Positions 24,393 to 41,100 of a stretch of DNA of 64,000 bases are shown in pieces. Origin of the DNA: Sphagnum compactum (taxonomy: Eukaryota). Within the stretch, counting starts at the first letter, position 1; every line of letters begins with the position of its first letter. A program made the position numbers and the translations under genes. Where the stretch lies: positions 29,130,213 to 29,194,212 of the forward strand of contig OZ234493.1 in assembly GCA_965153455.1 (NCBI GenBank). Reading direction: 5' to 3'. The notes under the pieces were generated by a model. That model saw nothing but the letters and a program-made list of their open reading frames with translations. It did not search any database and was not told the DNA's origin.

Positions 24393-27300
24393 TTAGGAGG
24401 TGTGCCTGATATGTGATGAGTAGCCACCAGGCACAGGATCCAAAATGATTGGCCCATTGCTTGATACCCTTTTGAATGGAGTTTCCTTGCCTCGCAACAG
24501 TTGAGGGATGTACACTTCGTCCATCTCAATACGGTGCCGTGGGTCATACATGTTTTCATCTCTTAATGCCTGCAGGATGGCATTAGGTGGCGCATTTCTG
24601 TACCATCAAGCATACAAAAGAACAATCATTTAGCATTCATCCTATTTACAAAAGTACCATGAGTTCTATCTCTTCCAAGCACAGTGTTCAAGTTTGGGTA
24701 ATAAAACCAAGAGGCCAGTGGTATCTAGAGTCTTATTCTCTTCAAAAGATGAGGGCTGAACAAGTTAGTAGCTTGGAGAACTCTGAGGCTTTGTACCATA
24801 GGATGGACATAATTACATGATCCTGATGATGCTTGTTCCAGAGGAATTTATTTACCTTTGAATTAGGATCTTGTACAGTGCCCTCAATATTGGGCATAGC
24901 TCCACAGGTGCCACTGGCTTATTTAATTCAGGATGCATCACACTTAAACTAGGTTGCCGCAGTAGTTCATGGAAGGCTTCCACTGCTGACACACCCTGCA
25001 CTCACAATAATCCAGAGGACATACATCAGATTTCATAATCAAACACAACTGCACACAATTTGTGCTGTTGATTACAGTAGTCAACATGTGAAGGTCAAAA
25101 AGGAGATTGCTTACATTGGCAGATGGTTGGAGAAGAGTTACTCACCTGAATCATGCCCTTCCCACTGATGTTGTCCCCCATTTCAATCTTAAGCTCCCCT
25201 TTAGCCAACTTCTCTCCATACCATGCATTGCGGCCTTTGAGCAGGGTAACATATGTGTCAGCTAGTAGAGGACCTGCCAATCTCTCTGGTTGCTCTGCGA
25301 GCAAATGTGTAATGTATATCATTTCTGATGTGCAGTGTGCAAAATACACAGCCTTGCTTGTAGCACTTTCATTTGTCAAAGCCCCTACCATCCCTGCACA
25401 AGTTCAGAGTTCCAAAATGTCAGCACTAGCTTGAAGCATTCACTTCATGAGAAATGCACATGATGCGACAGGACAGACAAATTTAGGACTGATTTACAGT
25501 GAAGGCCAAATTTTGGGATTGAAATTGCATTGCAAGCATTCTGGCACTGTAATTGGGCACCAAACAACCTTATATAGAATTGTCAACCCCAATAGAATTG
25601 ACAGATGACCTAACTTAGAGTGATTTCAGATCTGAAACAATCAGCAAACAGCAAAATGAGGAAACCCTTAAGAACAAGGGAAGAACCTTCACCAGCAACA
25701 TGTATGGTAGTAACCAGCTACCATAACCCCACTGACTTCATCAGCTCCTGGCACTAGGTCAAGGTCAATGTCATACATTGGCCAATGCACTGAGGTTCTG
25801 TCACAAGACTGGCAGTAGCTGAAAGACTCAGCAATGATGCTGGCTAGCTCAATACAACCTAAAAGAGAAGGGACAAGGACAAGGAAACAAAAAAGAAAGA
25901 GGGAAAAATAACAGACAAAGAAAAGGAAAAATACCAGAAACCAAAAGAGGAAAGAAAAAAGAGAGAAACAAGACAGAAGTTTAAGAGCATGATCTTTTGA
26001 GGACCAAGTGGGCCTTTAAAAGTCCCCCACTTAGGATAAAGAAATCCTTGAAATAATCATTTTGAAGATTCCAAAAGTCAAAACACCAAACAGAAATCTT
26101 TCTTTGTCATCCAGAAATCAAGCTCATAAACAAAACATTGAACTTTTGTCACCCAACCAAGACAATGCCTTCTTATCTCTTCTCCATTTCTATGTTTGAG
26201 AAAGGCTAAGCTGAAAAGGCATATTCCAGGGAGAAAATTGCTTGAGTCTGTACAACTTAAAAAAACTCTCATGAGTATCAAGCAATCTCCGCACTCAAGA
26301 TTAAGGAAACCAACACCAGGTGAAAAACTTTCCACTAAGTCAGAAAAAAACTCCTGGATAAGGACTGAAGTCCAGGAAGAAGAAAACTTAATTGTTAAGT
26401 CACTGTCATACCCATACCTGAGTTCTACCATCATTAGAGTCGGAAAAAGGCTTACCTGCACCAATAGCATAGACATTCTTGAGGCCTCCCATCACCTCAT
26501 GTGTGGTGAGATCACTGTTATCCCAAACTACAAAATGCGGCTGTCGTAAAAAGTGTGCCAGTGGCTTTCTCCACTTCTCTGAACCACAGATCCGAGCATT
26601 GGCATACTCCCTGTGGTACACTTCTGCAGCAATATTGGGCCCCCCTAAGTACAGCACATTCTCCGCTGGAACTCCAGCTGTCCACAGCCACCATTACAAA
26701 AACTTACATCATTTACAAAGGGGCATAGTCTCCTTCTGAGAGCACAAAGGGAAGAAGGTTGACCAGTCACTAGAAGGAATAACTTCTATAGGGCATTCCC
26801 TTAACTCAGACTTTCACCATCATCTTCAGGACTATTACTCTCTCTCATCAAAGTGCAGATTAATTTGTGAGCACCTCCCACTAGTAAACATATGGATCCT
26901 AATTCATGATAGTAGAAATCCTGAATGTGATCAGGCACACACTAAATGAACCCAATTCGATGGACTGCACTACACAATTCAAGCTCCATTCAAATTTGTT
27001 ATGGCGAAGCAAGGAAGGACTTGCAGGATACATGCCTTCAAGCATTCTGCAAATATAACCCACTGGACACATTCACGGATTATGCATCCTGAACAAGAAC
27101 CATACTGAGCTATGCAGTAATGAATGACATGTTGAGAGGAAGACAGATCATAGAGATCCCTTGTAGGAAACATTTAAGAAACTCATGCTCCATGAGTGAT
27201 CGCATTTGGCAAAATTTTACAAAAACCTAACCCCACCTGCCAGCCAAATATACAGTCAAAAGCACTCCATCCATCCCTTTTTTGAGTTCAATACCACATC

Positions 27301-28309
27301 ATTGTAAATATTTTTCTTCAGCAAAATAGGGTTCTACAATCCTTTCTAGGGAAGATGAAACAACTGACTTGTATCAACGATCATTTGTGTGGGGGTAATG
27401 ATGTGGGGGATGGGCTGCAGTGCAGCCTCCACACCCTTGGCCAAAGATATGATGACAGGCATGGTGCGGCGCTCTCTCCAGAATCGTCCAATTTGTTGGA
27501 AAACAGGACGGATCTCTGTGGAAGGGAGAGCGTTGACAACAATGTCTGCATCCCACACTGCTTCCTGCAGGTTGGTTACCACCTTGAGAGGACAAAGAGG
27601 GGTATCGATCATATTCAAACAAAATCCATCTCTTAGGATCTCGTCTGCATAGAGTGTTCGATCTCCTAGCCGAGCCTCGACGTATTTGAGGTATGCGCAT
27701 TTGCGTATGAGGCGCCGCAACACATCTTCTCGTGCATTGATCACTTCAAAGAGGTGCTCGGCTGTCGGTTTGTCAACTTCCTTCCCTCCTCGTCGCCATA
27801 TCCGCATCTGCACATTTCCAGTGTTGACGATACGAAACTGCTCAGACACTGGTGAACATGCAGTTGAATCCTAAGGCACCGAAACGGAGGAAAGTCTGCT
27901 AATGTCTACTACACTTCCGCTTCTCCGGAGAACACTCCGAAACTTGAACCTCGTCAAATGTTCATCCACAAGCAGATCGTCTCTTTCTTCCCTACTTTGC
28001 GCGAAGTCTCACATGACGGCTATGTCCGTGATTACCACAAATAGAGATAGAACAGTAAGAAACTGCGAAACACTCAACCTGCACAGAATCGCGCAGTGCA
28101 CCATACGCATCCTGCAGCAATGCAATGAAGACGCTCCCCCACGCACCAGCTCCCACACCAACGATACGTAATGCGTCCCCGTCGAGCTTCCCTAGTAAGC
28201 TCCGAAGCTCTGCTACTCTCTCCTCCCCGAATCCTGCCACATGCGCCGCCTTCTTGGCAGCCTCATGATTAAGGTAACCATTACTACTGACACCGCAATC
28301 GTCCGCCAT
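24393..28309 (-). CDS. GPDHC1: Cytosolic glycerol-3-phosphate dehydrogenase [NAD+], 494 aa. Exons 28309-28079, 27807-27369, 26677-26456, 25393-25146, 24995-24856, 24597-24393
   Basis: Rossmann motif [95 protein letters not shown]. All introns are GT-AG, and the exons sum to 1485 nt in frame. Confidence 0.96.
25647..25848 (-). ncRNA. Candidate structured RNA (copy A), possibly a ribozyme, at a retroelement 3' end
   Basis: Shares colinear blocks GCTAGCC, CTGAG, CTTGTGA-AGAA-CTCAGT, GAGCTGATGAAGTCAGTGGG, an 8-bp hairpin and ACATGTTGCTG with copy B. The hairpin stem shows compensatory changes. Confidence 0.45.
25647..26400 (-). mobile_element. Probable Penelope-like element 3' fragment in GPDH intron 3: decayed ORF end, T/C-rich tract, conserved structured tail
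   Basis: Weak similarity of '[15 protein letters not shown]' to the PLE RT C-terminal 'RF.R.CS...F' motif. A pyrimidine tract lies at 25860-25980 (minus). The tail at 25647-25848 is homologous to 38889-39087. Confidence 0.5.
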
Positions 28310-29279
28310 TTGCCCCCCTCCTTCTCTCTATCTCTATGTCTCGCGTTCTCTCTCTTCTCTTCTTCACTCAACCACCCGCTCCACGGCGATCTCTTTCTTC
28401 TTCTCCACCAATTTTTCAATTGAAGCAACTACCTCCGGAGCCTTGAGAATCGAGTCACAACCAGCAAAGCGGGCCTCGAGAAGAAGTATCATCATGGAAA
28501 GCAAACCCTACTTCCTCTATCTCGAAGGAAAAAAACAATAAATCATAGTAATAGACTTCCAAAGCCACGGAAAAAAAATGATGCCGGCAAGTCGGGGATA
28601 CACAACTAAAATGCTCGCAGACTGGAGTGCAATTGAAGCAAGGAAACGGAAAACCAAAAAGTGCAGAAACCAAAAATCGTTTTAAAAAAATGGAAGAAAC
28701 AAATGCAAATGTGAGTGAGCGAACTAAAGCTGACAGTTGCCGCAAACCGATTAGGAAGAGAAAAAGAAGGAGAAGAAGAAGCGTAGGAGATAGGCCAAGG
28801 GAAAATTGTAGTGGCAATGACTGACTAGTGTGTTGCAGCAGTGAAAGAAAACCTGTACCTGCAGAAATGCGACAACGCACACTCGCGCAGCAAAAGCGGC
28901 TAAGAAACAAACAAAACACAAGCGCCAAAAACAGAAGGGGAGAAAGCGCAGGTGCGCCTCTCTGTGCACGCTCACCTTTGGGAACGTCAAAAGTTCGGGA
29001 ACAATGAGAACTTCCTCTTTTTTTTCTCCTGCCCCCCTTCTTTTCTTTTCTTTATTTTTCGCTTTCGTCATGCCCCTCTTCTTTCCGGGCAGGATGAAAC
29101 CAGCACCTACACTGGTACCTTTGGTATGTCAGGATGGGGGAACTTTACCATGGTTAGAAGTAATTGAAAAAAAGCTTAGGGTTTTCAACCCAGGAAATGT
29201 TAAATTTGGACTCTGAGACCCTGATTTAATTAATATTAGGATGGGATCTTTACCATGGTAAAAACATTCAGGGTTATTA

Positions 29280-29870
29280 GTTTTCTTTTTCTTTTTCTCT
29301 TGCCCCTTTCTTTTCCTTCCTTCTTTCTTTTCTTTCCCACTCTTCTTCTCTTTTGGGCAAGGTTTCTAATACCTCTTTTTGTTCCTTAAATGGAAGGAAG
29401 TTAGAGTTAGGGTAGGCCTAAATGGGACTCTTGGAATTTTGTCCCTTCCTCCTTTCTTTCCCCTCTTCTTCTCTTTGGGCAAGTCTTCTTTTATCTCTTT
29501 TGTTCTTAAAAACAAGGAAGTAGAGGGAGGGGGAGGTGGGACTTCTTCCCTTCCTTCTTTCTTTCTTTCTTTCCTTCACCCCTTCTTCTTTTTTGGGTGA
29601 GTTCTCTTTTGTTACTTAAATGCAAGGAAGTAGAGGTAAGGGGAAGTGTGGGATTTTTCGCCTTTCTTTGCCCCCCTTTTTCCCCTTTTGGCCAAGTTCC
29701 CTTAAATATGCTATATGAAATGTCATGTCATTTGCTTTTATCTTTTTTGTTCTTTAAAATGCAAGGAAGGAAAGGTTAAAGCAAGTGTGGGGATTCTTTT
29801 AGCCCCTATGAGAAGTGTGTGGGTGTAGGGTATTTTTTTCTTTTTCTTTTTCTTTTTTCTTTGGGTGAAC
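29280..29870. repeat. Pyrimidine-rich low-complexity degenerate repeats upstream of GPDH
   Basis: The unit 'tcttcttctctttgggcaag...aaatg(c/g)aaggaagt(t)agag' recurs 3-4 times. Confidence 0.55.
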
Positions 29871-35570: not shown

Positions 35571-38142
35571 ATGGTGAGTAATCAACATATGGTAATTTGA
35601 TTTTGCTAAAAGGAAGTGTGATAAAATGTTATATGTGTAGATGGTCAATTTTTTTGAATAGTTAAATTTAATCAAACAATGTTTGTTTGAAATGTGCAAG
35701 CATCTTCTAACATGTGCATTTTCTTGCTTGAGATCAATTTATTTTACAAAATTGCTTGAACATCATTTCTTGAAGTTTCATTTTATTAGATTTTTATGGC
35801 TAACTAATGTTTAAGAAATTTATAATTTGTAAATTTCATTGGTAGTCATGTCAATGGAATGGATTTAATGATGAAGTTAATTTGCACATTATTCATTACC
35901 TCTTACAAACATAGTACATAATTGTCTTCCCCCATATTTTTAACAATTATCCTTGCATTGTGAAGCTTAAGTATTTATTTCAAATCATTGTTGGCATCTT
36001 GGACACGATTTTCAATTTATTGTTTGGACTTATGAATGATTTGGTGTTTCTGTTCATCTATATCACCACGTTGTTCAGGTATTGCATCGAATTCAAATGC
36101 CCCATGCAATATTTTGTTTGTGCAAAATTGTGAAGTATTGTGAAATATTTTTGGATAAAAGGAATGTTTTGTTACAAGATTCTTGTTTTGTGAAAAAAAA
36201 TTTGCCAAAAAAGGAGCAATTTCTGGTCATATTCAATACATGGATGTGATAGGTAGCCAAATTATAGAAGGATATATTTTTTGGGGACAAGTACTAAGGG
36301 TTGGTTGATGTATAGTAATACATCCTTCTATTATGAAACTTGTTTAAAAAAACCCATGGTTCCATGTATAACTACAAGTTAAAACTAAAGGGTTTTGCTA
36401 GTGAATTTTTAAATGTGCGAATGTTTGTGAAATAGTTTGTTGACATATCTAGGTATATGTGAATTGCCATAATAAACTTAAAGTGCTATGTTTGGAATGC
36501 ATTCCATTATGTTCACCTTTTGATGTGTTCACGAAACTATCATTTGAGATGTCATGTCTACTCAAGTTTGCATAAGTTACTAAAAGTTCGTGAAGTGCTA
36601 TAGTTAAAGTACTTTTGCTTGGAATTTATAAAATTTTGAACAAGTTATTACACACTTATTTACGTGTCTAAGAAGATGAAAGTAAAAGATGATGTCAACA
36701 ATGGAGAGCAATGGTATTGTTCAATTATTGTCATTCACAAGAAAGAAAATGGTATGATAATCTGTCCATGACAAAAATCACAAGATTATGACCCCAGTTA
36801 TTCTTTGTCATGGTGGATATGATCTGATTGGAATTGACACAATGGTTACCTTGAAAGTGCCATTGTGCAGTAGTTTTCTCTGCAATCTCATAGATATATA
36901 TCATGGGGGACAATAGATGGCAATTGAACAATGGCTTACCCAGCAATTCACAAACCGTCAAAGACCTATCTTATTGCAGGCAGAGTAGGACCTCTTAGCA
37001 TTTCATACCCAAATTTAATATAATTTCATTACTTTGCGGATTCCACTGAAAGAGGGGTTTGGGGGTGAAAGGAGACCCAAAGGTAGGATGAGGGCCTACT
37101 CTGCGTGCAATAAGATTGTGAAGGCCTATTCTGCCTATTGCAAAATTTAGTTGTTTTCCAACAAATGCCAATTTTTACACCACCAAAATTGATGTTTTTC
37201 TGAGTTTCAATGTTTAAACCCACCTTGAATGTTAATATTCCTTTTTCAGGTCTTTTTAACCCTCATCAGGTTTATGACCAAACTCAGGGTTCTCATGCTG
37301 TACTTTCCTCACATTACGGATTTCTCTAATACATTACAAACAGAATAGACCCTCTAAAGTTTTTACCAACAAAGGCACCCCATGAAACAGATTCTATTCC
37401 CATTGTGCCTTTATTGCTTGCCCTGAAGGCTTATTTAGTTGCAGACTACACCCTATAAGACTACATCTCTAGTGTGTAATAATATCAGTGCAGGGTGTTT
37501 TATTCACAGTGCAAATTACCCTATTCATAATGTGACACGTCTATTGCCAATGTCTTCTTCAATCAATTACATGCTCTGATTATCTGATTAGTTTTGTTTC
37601 CAGAGATTTGCAGGGACGGAAGCACAAGCAAGACATGGAGATGCAACTGAGCTTCAGACCTGAAACCAACCAGGGAGAACAAAACTAGTGTAATGGAGGA
37701 TTTCTAACTCACTCCCAATGTATCAACTATCCACCCTAGTGATGCATTTGTTACCAGCATGAACCTGAGGCTATGAGCAGCAAGAGTGGAGTAAAAAAAA
37801 AGAGAGCAGATCTTATATGAGTCTTGGTCTAAAATGCAACATATTGATTCTCTGTCAAACTCCAAAGAAACCACAAAGTTTGACACAATGCACAATGATG
37901 TATATTCTTAAGTGGCTAATTCACAATAAAAGTCTACGGGCCACTTTAGCAACTCTAGAGATGATAGTAGTGCTAGTTTGCAAGTGGTCTGCTCCTGCAC
38001 TTGAACATGTTCATAACAAATTGTATACATGAATCATACTAACATCCACCACACAAGTGTTCACCACACCTGGAGATAGTGGAGCCAGTGAATTGATTGG
38101 CTCCTCTCCAGATTGCAGTGACAAGAGGCATCACATGAATCA

Positions 38143-41100
38143 TCAAGCAGCAGCAACTTCACTTTTGTCATCTTTAGCCCAAAAACTTGTAGCCTTTCCT
38201 GTCCTTGAAATTCGGTCCAGGACCTCATCAGGCTTCACATTTCCAGTAATTGTCACCTTCTGCTCCTGCAAGTCTATGTCATAGGAATTCACACCTGTAA
38301 TTGGAGCACAAAATCAGTTTCAAACTCTTATAATTCTGTCCACAAAAAGTCCACATACATGGACTGGGATATCATATCAGAGCAAGATCTCTTGAATCTC
38401 TTGATTCTGATAACAAGCACTGCAAGGTCTAATTTGAACACACTCTTCACAGACAGTCTCTAAAGGTATTCACTTCACTAATGGTTTGAACCTAAAACAA
38501 ACACTCATCCAATAATTCCATACATAAGTTGATATAACTTCACATGCATGGACATATCCAAGGACATAAGTTCAAAATAGGAGTACCATCCAACTTGCCG
38601 ATGGCTCTCTTTACTGCTCCCACACAGCCTCCACAGGTCATGGCAACCTTCAGGACAACAGTCTGCACAACCACCATTCTGGTAAGAGTTCATTGACTGC
38701 AGCAAGCAATAGATCATAATTCTCATGAGTATTGAAAAATATCCATAACTCATGATTAAAGGCAACTATTCCTTTTAAAATTCCTTTTAAGTCAAAGAAA
38801 AACTTCCAGATAAGGATTAAAGAGCAGGGAAAAAGAGATACACAGAAGGGAAGAACTTGTCTGAAACAACAATAAAATTAGCAGTATGAACAGCAGTGAC
38901 AGACCCTAAATTCTTGAGGGACCATCAACAGTAACATGTGTGATAGTGACTTTTCTATCACAACTTACCCACTAACTTCATCAGCTCACTGCAGTGGGTA
39001 TAGGCAAGTGTAATTATTACCATAAGTACTGAGTTTCTCTCACAAGTCCAGAAGCCACAGGATAACTTAGTGATGGTACGGGCTAGCACCCTTCACTACA
39101 AAAGGGAATAGACAGAGAGAATACAGAGGGTAAAAACAAAAGAGTGAGTCACATGAGGAAAAAAGAACAAAACATAATAAACAGAAGGGAGAAGACAAAT
39201 GAAGACCAATTCCACTTGGAAAAGCTTCTCATTTACCAGACTAATTACCCAATTCTACAAACTTCCCACAACTGAAATTTCAAATAGAAAACTCTCTTTT
39301 ATTGAGCAAACCTCTGATCCTCTTTAAGAAAACCTTGAAAGGGTAGCAGGAAGTTGAGATGACCATCTGAGAAACAAAGAAACCTTGAGAACTGAAAAGC
39401 CTCAAGAACCTGTAGAATTGACTATTGATAATGCCCCACTTAGCAGCAATTACAAGATTAGAATGAGCATGAGGCATATGGATCATGTCAATACCTTCCT
39501 TTTCAGGTTGAATATGATTATAGAAAATATCACTTGAAACTTCTAGCACTTTAGTCAATGGCTAAATCCAAAAGTTACAAGCAAAGCCATTAGACATACA
39601 ATTGAACCCACAAAACATTTTAGGGTGTATGCCGCCATTGAAAGAGTCTTTGTCCGGGTACATAAAACTCTCGAAAGTTCCAGACAAAAAGATCACCCAC
39701 AAGCCTATAAATTAGGGATGATCTCTGAGGGTGTAGAGTTGGACTCCAAAAGACATTTCAAAAAATCAAACTCAACTGCAGGAAGCAACCACAAGCACAT
39801 CCACGGGAACCAAAATTTTGAATCAGTCCAGCATCTCCCTTTGCAGTTTAAAACCTCAATATGCTCAGAAGGAATATGTCAATTTCGGCCAATGCACCAC
39901 TGCATATGCATCCATCTGAAGACTTCAAACGCCATTGCAATTGAGTGCACAATAGACTGTTTGACAGATAGCTCTATAATGGCCACTCCACAACAAAGAT
40001 AGATTCTGAATCTACTCTTGGAAACAGATTTTGCTGCTGAATTTGCTCATGGAAAATTGATCAGTCCACACCAATCCTTTCTTGTGATTATAAACCCTCT
40101 TCTTGACAACTCTGAACTGTTGTTGGTCACCTACTGGGAAGAACCTTAGCTTATGTTGTTTAACTGCAAGGAAACATCTGATAAACTAATGAATCATACA
40201 ACAGCTTATTCCACCACAATCACCAACTGGCCACTGGTTTGCTTGATGACATACTCAGTCACAAACTGACTTCAGAAGAAAATGCAGAGCAAGCTTGAGA
40301 CAGGTCATTGCAGAGTCACAGGTACTCATCATGGAGGACAGACACCAATGATTAGTGCCCACCCAATCATGAGATAATCTGAGTCTAAAGCATCAACTGA
40401 AGACAAAAGGAAGCACAAATTCTACATCACAGGTGTCAAGGTGCACCTCAAGCTATTCTTCACCTCTTTGCTTGGTAGACAACATACCACCTTGGCTTCA
40501 TTATTATTGCCAACAAGCATGTAAAGGACCATATTAGGAAAGCCTGGACCAGGCTTGACGTACACACCATGGCCTAGTTTTGGAACCACATAAAATAGTA
40601 AGTTTCTCCTTCAATTCTTCAGTCACAAACTGAAGTGTCAAGCACCACAACACCATCGTCAGAAAGGCTGGTCATGCCCTTGAGTCTGAGAGCTTCACAG
40701 GGAACTACAGAGGCATCTAGACTCGAGTCTGTTTGTGAAAAAAACAGCAAAAACATTCTTTGCCGCTTGCCAGAAAACCAAATCAACAGACTTTTGCACA
40801 CACGTCAAAGCGCACAATTCTTGAGACACTCGTGACAAAGCTGAAACAAGGCACTTTCATCGATGGAACAAACTGCCATATCAAACCGCGAAGTCCACAG
40901 TTTTTCACATAGCTCACTTCAAAGGCTTCTTTTACAGATAGATCTGCTATAAAACTTCTCCTGTGACGTGAATAGATCATCCTACCTAAGTCCAGAATTG
41001 TAAAAAGATATTTTTCTATTTCAGAACAAAGCGTTGTGAGACAACACAAGGCGTGGAGCAAGCGGAAATAAGCAAGCGATTGTTTTCAAAGGCACACAAA

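Follow-up and report, generated by a model that had tools for sequence, protein, structure and literature searches.

The locus described here raises the question of what an RNA segment of about 200 nt, kept in two otherwise dissimilar retroelement insertions, does for the elements that carry it. Both insertions lie in a 64,000-nt stretch of Sphagnum compactum contig OZ234493.1 (referred to throughout as the window), and the segment (referred to as the module) occupies the 3' part of Penelope-like elements (PLEs). An earlier note, made from the sequence of the window, had suggested a non-canonical hammerhead ribozyme, or an undescribed RNA that either cleaves itself or is recognised by the reverse transcriptase (RT) of the element. 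In the present analysis the module was found to be a conserved multi-helix RNA domain with base pairing supported by covariation, and to be shared with a short non-coding family of elements. It is probably an RNA signal recognised by the element RT.

A conserved module present twice in the window

The module was present twice in the 64-kb window, both times on the minus strand, and was compared over positions 25620-25880 (copy A) and 38860-39120 (copy B). The pairwise MAFFT alignment of these regions had a mean column identity of 79% over 266 columns, and blastn aligned 127 nt of the two copies at 70.9% identity (E 1e-8). A 20-mer at the core of the module had two exact occurrences in the window, against an expectation of 0.00, and no third copy was found there with an nhmmer profile of the A and B pair (next match E=0.38). 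When global alignments of A and B were compared with shuffles, the module gave z=19.2; for the flanks, z was 1.6 (adjacent 200 nt upstream), -0.5 (200-400 nt upstream) and -0.5 (170 nt downstream). The likeness between the copies is real, far beyond chance and confined to the module. The earlier description of two colinear minus-strand copies, lying in dissimilar surroundings and conserved above the neighbouring element sequence, was thus borne out by the alignment, the blastn match, the 20-mer count and the z-scores. The elements reach further 3' than the segment described at the time, by about 170 nt in B, up to a terminal hairpin.

Relatives of the module in metagenome contigs

Relatives were gathered by scanning metagenome contigs with the 20-mer core, leaving one position free. 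At least 122 loci were obtained, many of them on contigs of 10-90 kb. Among the matches listed, blastn grouping assigned 56 to a B-like family (family 1), 54 to a short family (family 2) and 12 elsewhere, including some A-like loci; the A-type relatives among these matches were L011, L033, L037, L042, L074, L080, L107 and L119. Removal of near-identical loci left 111 of the 118 complete cores among the matches listed. The 20-mer was the search key, and its own conservation among the collected copies carries no information. Anchoring on an independent 5' block instead recovered 91 copies, 10 of which were without the exact 20-mer and had scattered substitutions or deletions in it. Block 1, which is outside the search pattern, was common to families whose spacers and flanks do not align.

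Some individual loci had unusual arrangements. In L069 (about 870-1020) and in L110, which contains the same repeat, the region of the core motif (GGAGCUGAUGAAGUCAGUGAGCAA...) was found in three tandem repeats inside the module. In L015 (516-1150), no more than about 10 nt separate the 3' end of a family 1 copy from the start of a 5'-truncated short-family copy. The copies L071 and L072 share one contig, 1133 nt apart, and adjacent or tandem insertion of this kind is typical of PLEs. In a short-family copy in L095 (197-286), the P2 region described below was duplicated internally, giving a long near-perfect hairpin, which weakly resembles the mir-3912 microRNA precursor model (E 0.36, far below the gathering score).

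Folding and covariation of the module

Helices were proposed by eye from the comparison of the families and then tested by pair counts (59 pairs) on a 67-sequence MAFFT alignment (A2). In the resulting fold, a 10-bp long-range helix (LR) closes a junction holding hairpins P1 to P4, and P5 is located just after it. The LR strands are CAGUAGUAUG with CAUACUACUG in family 1, CAUCAUGA with UCAUGAUG in family 2, and CCAGCAUCAU with AUGUUGCUGG in the A-type copies. P1 is formed by CUGAGU...ACUCAG, with two inner segments, and P2 is a variable hairpin. In P3, CCCACUG pairs with CAGUGGG around a 17-nt loop carrying GAGCUGAUGAAGU.

The proportion of paired cells was 80.1%, compared to 34.8-48.7% when the partners were slid by 1-3 columns and 76.6±0.3% in shuffled alignments, none of which reached the observed value (0/500). 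Likewise, the covariation score was 0.218, compared to at most 0.088 for slid partners and 0.175±0.004 for shuffles (0/500), and both sides of a pair were changed in 209 cells, compared to 91-120 for slid partners. Measures counting pairs or pair types were weaker, the observed values being reached by 10/500 and 78/500 shuffles. Alternative pair types were found in LR (U-A 29 / C-G 20; G-C 23 / U-A 18; C-G 28 / U-A 17), in P4 (G-C 28 / A-U 19 / G-U 14; U-A 36 / C-G 21) and in P2 (G-C 34 / A-U 17). P4 is the 8-bp hairpin in which two compensatory pairs had already been noticed between A and B, and it recurs in more than 100 copies. The earlier note had cautioned that C-to-T decay might mimic covariation; the transversions in LR (G-C to U-A) and at the base of P4 (U-A 34 / A-U 10) rule out decay of CpG or CHG sites as the explanation for these pairs. 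With transitions set aside, covariation was still present in the module (alignment A2) and in the terminal hairpin (alignment A4). The frequent G-U pairs tie the fold to the sense strand of the element.

The minimum free energy (MFE) structure of an intact copy, L014, recovered 10/10 pairs of LR, 8/9 of P2, 9/9 of P4 and 9/10 of P5. This structure also contained a small CCC/GGG hairpin replacing P3, which was dropped as an alternative since the short family retains just two of its pairs. The terminal hairpin, of 14 bp, is located before the 3' end of the element, and 84.7% of its cells were paired, compared to 46-75% for slid partners (52 sequences, alignment A4). Its pair types included G-C 30 / U-A 16, A-U 25 / U-A 19 and A-U 31 / G-C 14; the selection motif had set the four apical pairs in advance.

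Two of the pairings proposed earlier have to be reassigned in this fold. The supposed third long-range pair (CTAA/TTAG in B, CTGA/TCAG in A) is not supported: in helix P1, CUGAG pairs with CUCAG, and the CUAAG of B is a decayed copy. Similarly, ACAUGUU, formerly read as a palindromic stem III, is actually the 3' strand of LR. As a separate observation, the P3 loop includes a GAUGAAG whose complement, CUUCAUC, occurs about 20 nt before the terminal hairpin in family 1 (e.g. L014:1195-1215); at that site the short family has CUUCA. This might represent a loop-to-tail contact, with the loop letters being fixed by the search pattern.

The helices were placed in the two window copies as follows (all on the minus strand). 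Copy B is decayed: LR keeps 7/10 pairs, and P1 and P2 are damaged.

39072..39081, minus strand: B, 5' strand of LR (family-wide covariation, columns 150-155 with 439-444)
39029..39070, minus strand: B, helix P1 (CUAAGU...ACUCAG, containing the GAAAC box), partly decayed (pair counts)
39010..39020, minus strand: B, remnant of the variable hairpin P2 (pair counts)
38968..38998, minus strand: B, hairpin P3 (CCCACUG / UAGUGGG), with a 17-nt loop carrying GAGCUGAUGAAGU and CUGAUGA at 38978-38984 (3' strand fixed by the search pattern)
38939..38962, minus strand: B, hairpin P4 (UGUGAUAG / CUAUCACA) (pair counts)
38929..38938, minus strand: B, 3' strand of LR (CAUGUUACUG, the ACATGTT block of the earlier note) (pair counts)
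38885..38927, minus strand: B, conserved UGAUGGUC linker and region of hairpin P5 (pair counts)
38715..38754, minus strand: B, terminal hairpin (CAUGAGU...ACUCAUG) and 3' end of the element (family terminus, pair counts)
25834-25843 with 25692-25701, minus strand: A, helix LR
25790-25831, minus strand: A, helix P1
25763-25783, minus strand: A, hairpin P2
25752-25758 with 25728-25734, minus strand: A, hairpin P3
25718-25725 with 25703-25710, minus strand: A, hairpin P4
25665-25680, minus strand: A, hairpin P5

Identity of the elements carrying the module

In family 1 the 3' end was fixed about 250 nt after the core and the 5' ends ranged from -11 to beyond -1000, which is the pattern of target-primed, 5'-truncated retroelements. 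The open reading frame (ORF) of the longest family 1 copies stops about 330 nt before the core and encodes RT motifs (GIPMGTNCA and RFVDDLF in L029). The RT is the C-terminal domain of this ORF, and long homologs align with it along their own RT. In the 3' untranslated region (3' UTR), the stop codon is followed by a CT-rich tract, the module (about -128 to +105 from the core), a T-rich and partly (TG)n spacer, the terminal hairpin and the ...AGAUAU end. The earlier statement that a PLE-like ORF end and a pyrimidine tract precede the module was correct for both window copies, with about 410 nt of RT coding remnant in B and the last 24 or so codons in A:

38715..39702, minus strand: copy B, a 5'-truncated Penelope-like element comprising RT remnant, CT tract, module, T-rich spacer and terminal hairpin (tblastn with ORFs of metagenome copies; 3' end via the family 3' terminus)
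39289..39702, minus strand: B, RT C-terminal coding remnant, about 410 nt (tblastn, 48-54% amino acid identity to the L029/L054/L008/L049 ORFs, E 1e-28 to 1e-34)
39090..39230, minus strand: B, pyrimidine (CT)-rich tract upstream of the module (sequence; same tract in family 1 copies)
38885..39087, minus strand: B, conserved structured module (alignment, family comparison, pair counts)
25560..26115, minus strand: copy A, an element of a second family, more deeply 5'-truncated, with an approximate 3' end (tblastn, family comparison)
26043..26114, minus strand: A, last 24 or so codons of the ORF (tblastn, 50-72% identity over 17-24 amino acids, E 3e-4 to 6e-4; same C-terminal peptide in P0001)
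25850..25982, minus strand: A, pyrimidine-rich tract (at least 85% AG on the plus strand)
25665..25848, minus strand: A, conserved module (alignment, helix placement)

No RT or nuclease match was obtained with Pfam on 67 ORFs around both window copies and on the RT fragments, and RVT_1 was reached only below the cut-off, in two homologs. As Pfam does not recognise these fragments, the identity of the element was drawn from homology searches. A protein search returned 22 relatives among 164 candidates; the closest were N-terminally incomplete, and the named matches were from a fern and a Sphagnum species. P0002, with 85% identity to the RT part of L029, has CxC and DK(G/A)-type motifs upstream of the RT core, as do the long homologs (alignment A3), so that this support comes from relatives and not from the window copies. 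A GIY-YIG domain is located N-terminal to the RT in longer relatives at 35-46% identity and is visible in five long rows of alignment A3; its Pfam score was 22.7 bits in P0017, just at the cut-off, and below the cut-off in P0006 and P0007. By this domain order in its relatives, the family is assigned to the CxC-motif, N-terminal-nuclease (Naiad/Chlamys-like) lineage of PLEs.

PLEs of the Naiad/Chlamys type with an N-terminal nuclease are described as being without canonical hammerheads (Craig et al. 2021, PMC8557442, cited here throughout from the part of its text that was available). In that part of the text, true mosses appear only via a few BlastP hits, and PLE RTs are given as the sister group of the telomerase reverse transcriptase (TERT). 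The adjacent copies in L071/L072 and L015, the variable 5' ends and the lack of a hammerhead in the last ~1 kb match the traits of N-terminal-nuclease PLEs. Together with the short family described below, the data suggest that a moss-like genome contains CxC-type PLEs in abundance, along with a non-autonomous family dependent on them.

A short non-autonomous family containing the module

Family 2 elements are about 350 bp long, have no ORF, and consist of the module and the 3' terminus. They share with family 1 block 1, P3, P4, the UGAUGGUC linker, the P5 hairpin and the terminal GGAGAUUUCUC...AGAUAU. Their 5' end is sharp: at least nine independent insertions, unrelated in their upstream flanks, have a common 12-13-nt leader at the start, immediately before TGCTAGCC. 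No RNA polymerase III (pol III)-type head (tRNA, 7SL or 5S) was detected in the short-family loci at E≤1 with Rfam. From this composition, family 2 is classed as a non-autonomous element.

Proposed function of the module

The module would act in cis as the signal by which the element RT picks and positions its own RNA. Recognition of the module by the RT would place the terminal hairpin and the 3' end for target-primed reverse transcription, and family 2 would be mobilised in trans through the same signal. We regard this account as the probable one. Of the suggestions in the earlier note, that of an RNA with conserved structure in the 3' portion of PLEs was upheld, the hammerhead was not, and RT recognition fits best because the short non-autonomous family keeps just the module and the 3' terminus. 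Recognition by the RT is also in line with what is known of the PLE of the anole, PAc, whose protein depends on a particular segment of its RNA and begins cDNA synthesis in a stem-loop.

A number of points weigh against this proposal. Binding of the module by the RT protein, and its role in template choice, are inferred. The element was seen over its last 1 kb at most, which places its own N-terminal nuclease, and any hammerhead further 5', outside the view. All copies come from one group of moss-like contigs plus the one window, and conservation in other plant lineages is beyond this sample. With regard to the fold, the window copies fold no better than shuffles (z +0.66 and -0.30), single-sequence MFE finds each helix in only 20-29 of 66-67 copies, and RNAalifold on the 67-sequence MAFFT alignment yields nothing beyond P4 and one small hairpin, a probable effect of misalignment among the variable hairpins. 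The structure was drawn by eye from family 1, which is in itself an advantage over the slid controls. Furthermore, the covariation counts are of cells and not of events, and most stem from a few differences among three families; LR position 6 differs also inside the family 1 cluster (L112). Variation in P1 is mostly one-sided, and P3 is outside the covariation evidence, its 3' strand having been set by the search pattern.

Known RNA families and alternative explanations

No Rfam model matched the window at its gathering score, and at E≤10 neither copy gave a match over the module, whether to a ribozyme, a snoRNA, a tRNA or anything else. In 20 related loci (34 kb), nothing relevant was found at E≤1, the matches to mir-3912 (E 0.36) and snoZ242 (E 0.73) being located elsewhere or spurious. 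The other self-cleaving ribozymes of Rfam 15 (hairpin, twister, twister-sister, pistol, hatchet, HDV-like and VS) gave no match in the window, the copies or the 20 loci. The module is therefore covered by no known family in this search. Readings as a C/D snoRNA or as a tRNA-type A/B box were tried and rejected, with no terminal stem and no Rfam support.

The hammerhead proposed earlier would have to be assembled, in a non-canonical or permuted form, from the GAAAC of block 1 and the CUGAUGA. All copies have CUGAUGA, but this is fixed by the search pattern, and GAAAC occurs at most 90 nt upstream of it in 49/63 copies. In the fold, CUGAUGA is in the loop between the two strands of P3, and GAAAC is within helix P1. 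The arrangement of CUGANGA, then a stem II (3 bp or longer) and GAAA, all inside 80 nt, was found in 0/39 family 1 and 0/24 short-family copies, and no hammerhead was matched at E≤10 in the window copies or at E≤1 in the 20 loci. The sequences do not permit a type II order either, for which the flanks would have to enclose two hairpins and a stem II, and since the strand after CUGAUGA pairs back to the strand before it, no hammerhead permutation is allowed. Judged by this topology, the module is not a hammerhead ribozyme, and a permuted form is very improbable. If the module were a self-cleaving ribozyme of a new class, perhaps one assisted by protein, its task would be to process PLE transcripts that are tandem or read-through; it would replace the hammerhead in hammerhead-less N-terminal-nuclease PLEs, with a core of the GAGCUGAUGAAGU loop, GAAAC and UGAUGGUC. 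This reading would account for a multi-helix junction in which these elements are strongly conserved and unpaired, and for a module that is explained by no known RNA family. Canonical PLEs do carry hammerheads near their 3' ends and N-terminal-nuclease PLEs do not, some of the latter showing 'HHR_core' or 'HHR_half_core' strings (PMC8557442); in addition, the anole PLE hammerhead cleaves only in the presence of protein (PMC11167929). However, the conserved elements would be just as expected if the RNA binds a protein, template recognition explains at least equally well why a non-autonomous family keeps the entire module, and the hammerhead-like letters have the wrong topology. No piled read starts or ends were reported at copy B, though this carries little weight at a depth of only 0-7. 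A new ribozyme class is consequently considered improbable, if less so than a hammerhead.

The module might instead be a captured host non-coding RNA, resembling a C/D-box snoRNA or a tRNA-derived SINE head, or its conservation might be due to chance. UGAUGA and a conserved CUGA are about 70 nt apart, and both window copies appear to be intronic and sense (see below for copy A). Against this, there is no terminal stem beside the boxes and the flanks are not complementary, no snoRNA, tRNA, 7SL or 5S match covers the module, and the module is always inside a retroelement 3' UTR, which makes host capture scarcely credible; chance is excluded by the 20-mer count, the at least 122 relatives and the module z=19.2. 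Another regulatory role deserves somewhat more attention. The module might be a DNA-level promoter in a pseudo-LTR, as PLE pseudo-LTRs are thought to contain a promoter (PMC11167929), or an element for stability, export or translation of the element mRNA. The tandem or adjacent copies (L071/L072 on one contig and two copies in L015), the CT-rich tract directly upstream of the module and the module words in metatranscriptome contigs (word depth ~117) are compatible with such a role. The compensatory changes and frequent G-U pairs indicate selection on RNA pairing, which argues against a promoter at the DNA level, and retention of the module by the non-coding short family argues against a role in translation. 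A role in RNA stability is still compatible with the data, and this group of explanations as a whole is unlikely, without being negligible. Recognition of the module by the RT is accordingly retained as the preferred explanation.

RNA data and host genes

Positions 37900-40400 were compared with the reads of a single poly(A) RNA run, which has the same species label, and with contigs from three metatranscriptomes. The minus-strand gene that hosts copy B has an intron at 38293-38584, backed by 255 reads. The exon at 38585-38664 (minus strand) was spliced to an exon beyond 40400 (293 reads with that loose end), which places copy B in an intron, in sense orientation. The earlier claim that both copies are intronic and sense is thus confirmed for B by RNA splicing; for A the same location is suggested only by flanking ORF pieces of a glycerol-3-phosphate dehydrogenase. 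Read depth over copy B was 0-7, compared to 200-300 in exons, and is too thin to bear on cleavage. Module words occurred in short metatranscriptome contigs from other copies, with a summed word depth of ~117, which shows presence in RNA libraries and not strand or origin.

The host gene of B (window 37900-38664, minus strand) looks like a small heavy-metal-associated (ATX1-like copper chaperone) gene with its start codon in the exon beyond 40400. The host gene of A (window 25095-28330, minus strand) is glycerol-3-phosphate dehydrogenase-like, with weak Pfam matches to both NAD_Gly3P_dh domains and long matching ORF pieces, and a long CT-rich low-complexity stretch (28455-29800) is located just upstream of it. 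A piece of about 31 nt from the T-rich spacer of B (38782-38816, minus strand) was also present in transcripts originating elsewhere: for 19 and 15 poly(A) reads the match is limited to this piece, the reads continuing into unlike sequence on either side.

Comparison with known systems

The pseudo-LTRs of canonical PLEs carry hammerheads (Cervera and de la Pena 2014, as cited in PMC8557442). Like these hammerheads, including that of the anole PAc element (PMC11167929), the module is a conserved RNA near the 3' end or pseudo-LTR of a PLE and contains the CUGAUGA and GAAAC letters. It differs from them in having no three-way hammerhead junction and no stem II followed by GAAA, and in being about 200 nt long with six helices, compared to about 50 nt. 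Craig et al. (2021) recorded 'HHR_core' and 'HHR_half_core' motif strings in Naiad/Chlamys PLEs (PMC8557442). The present elements resemble the 'HHR_half_core' cases in the type of PLE lineage and in having the halves of a hammerhead core tens of nt apart, one of them in the 3' UTR. Unlike the 'HHR_core' strings of that source, the letters are placed in a different structure by the covariation-supported fold.

PAc is the only PLE studied in vitro; its RNA binding motif was only roughly mapped, to the 172 nt with which the ORF begins in a tandem transcript, without definition of a fold (PMC11167929). Its cDNA synthesis begins inside a stem-loop, and the hammerhead is dispensable in vitro (Frangieh et al. 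2024, PMC11167929). The system proposed here would be similar in that the RT requires a specific part of the RNA and starts at a stem-loop and not by target annealing, a conserved terminal hairpin being located directly before the 3' end. It differs in that the candidate signal is in the 3' UTR of another PLE clade and is known from sequence alone. Non-LTR retrozymes derive, as non-autonomous elements, from PLE pseudo-LTRs in animals (bioRxiv 10.64898/2026.07.22.740005, in the part available). As portrayed there, they are, like family 2, short non-coding elements from the terminal non-coding part of a PLE and presumably PLE-mobilised; unlike family 2, which is without a hammerhead, dispersed and in a plant, they are hammerhead-defined, tandem or circular, and from animals.

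Sharing of the tail between long and short interspersed elements (LINEs and SINEs) is well known, LINEs having structured 3' UTR recognition elements and short partners, as in the example of the eel UnaL2. Recognition structures have been described in the 3' UTRs of stringent-type LINEs and of R2 (PMC5135761 and PMC10499050, from the parts available). As in LINE/SINE pairs and R2, a structured 3' UTR RNA is here conserved amid divergence and is common to an autonomous and a short element, with 5'-truncated copies. Unlike the LINE/SINE case, the enzyme is a PLE (telomerase-related) RT, a multi-helix junction 120-250 nt before the 3' end is combined with a separate terminal hairpin, and the short partner is without a pol III-type head. 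In the literature searched, taken apart from Repbase, Dfam and the supplements of PMC8557442, no description was found of a PLE 3' UTR fold, of a non-autonomous PLE partner in plants or of this lineage in true mosses, where such elements had just a passing mention.

How PLEs choose and prime their own RNA is hardly known, and their enzyme family is the sister group of telomerase. Telomerase RNA has domains bound by TERT, such as the CR4/5 three-way junction, and template boundary elements. The module resembles it as a multi-helix junction RNA presumed to bind a TERT-sister RT, which is an analogy only. The covariation-supported fold, kept both by autonomous elements and by a hitch-hiking short family, represents a concrete and mutable candidate for the template signal of a PLE.

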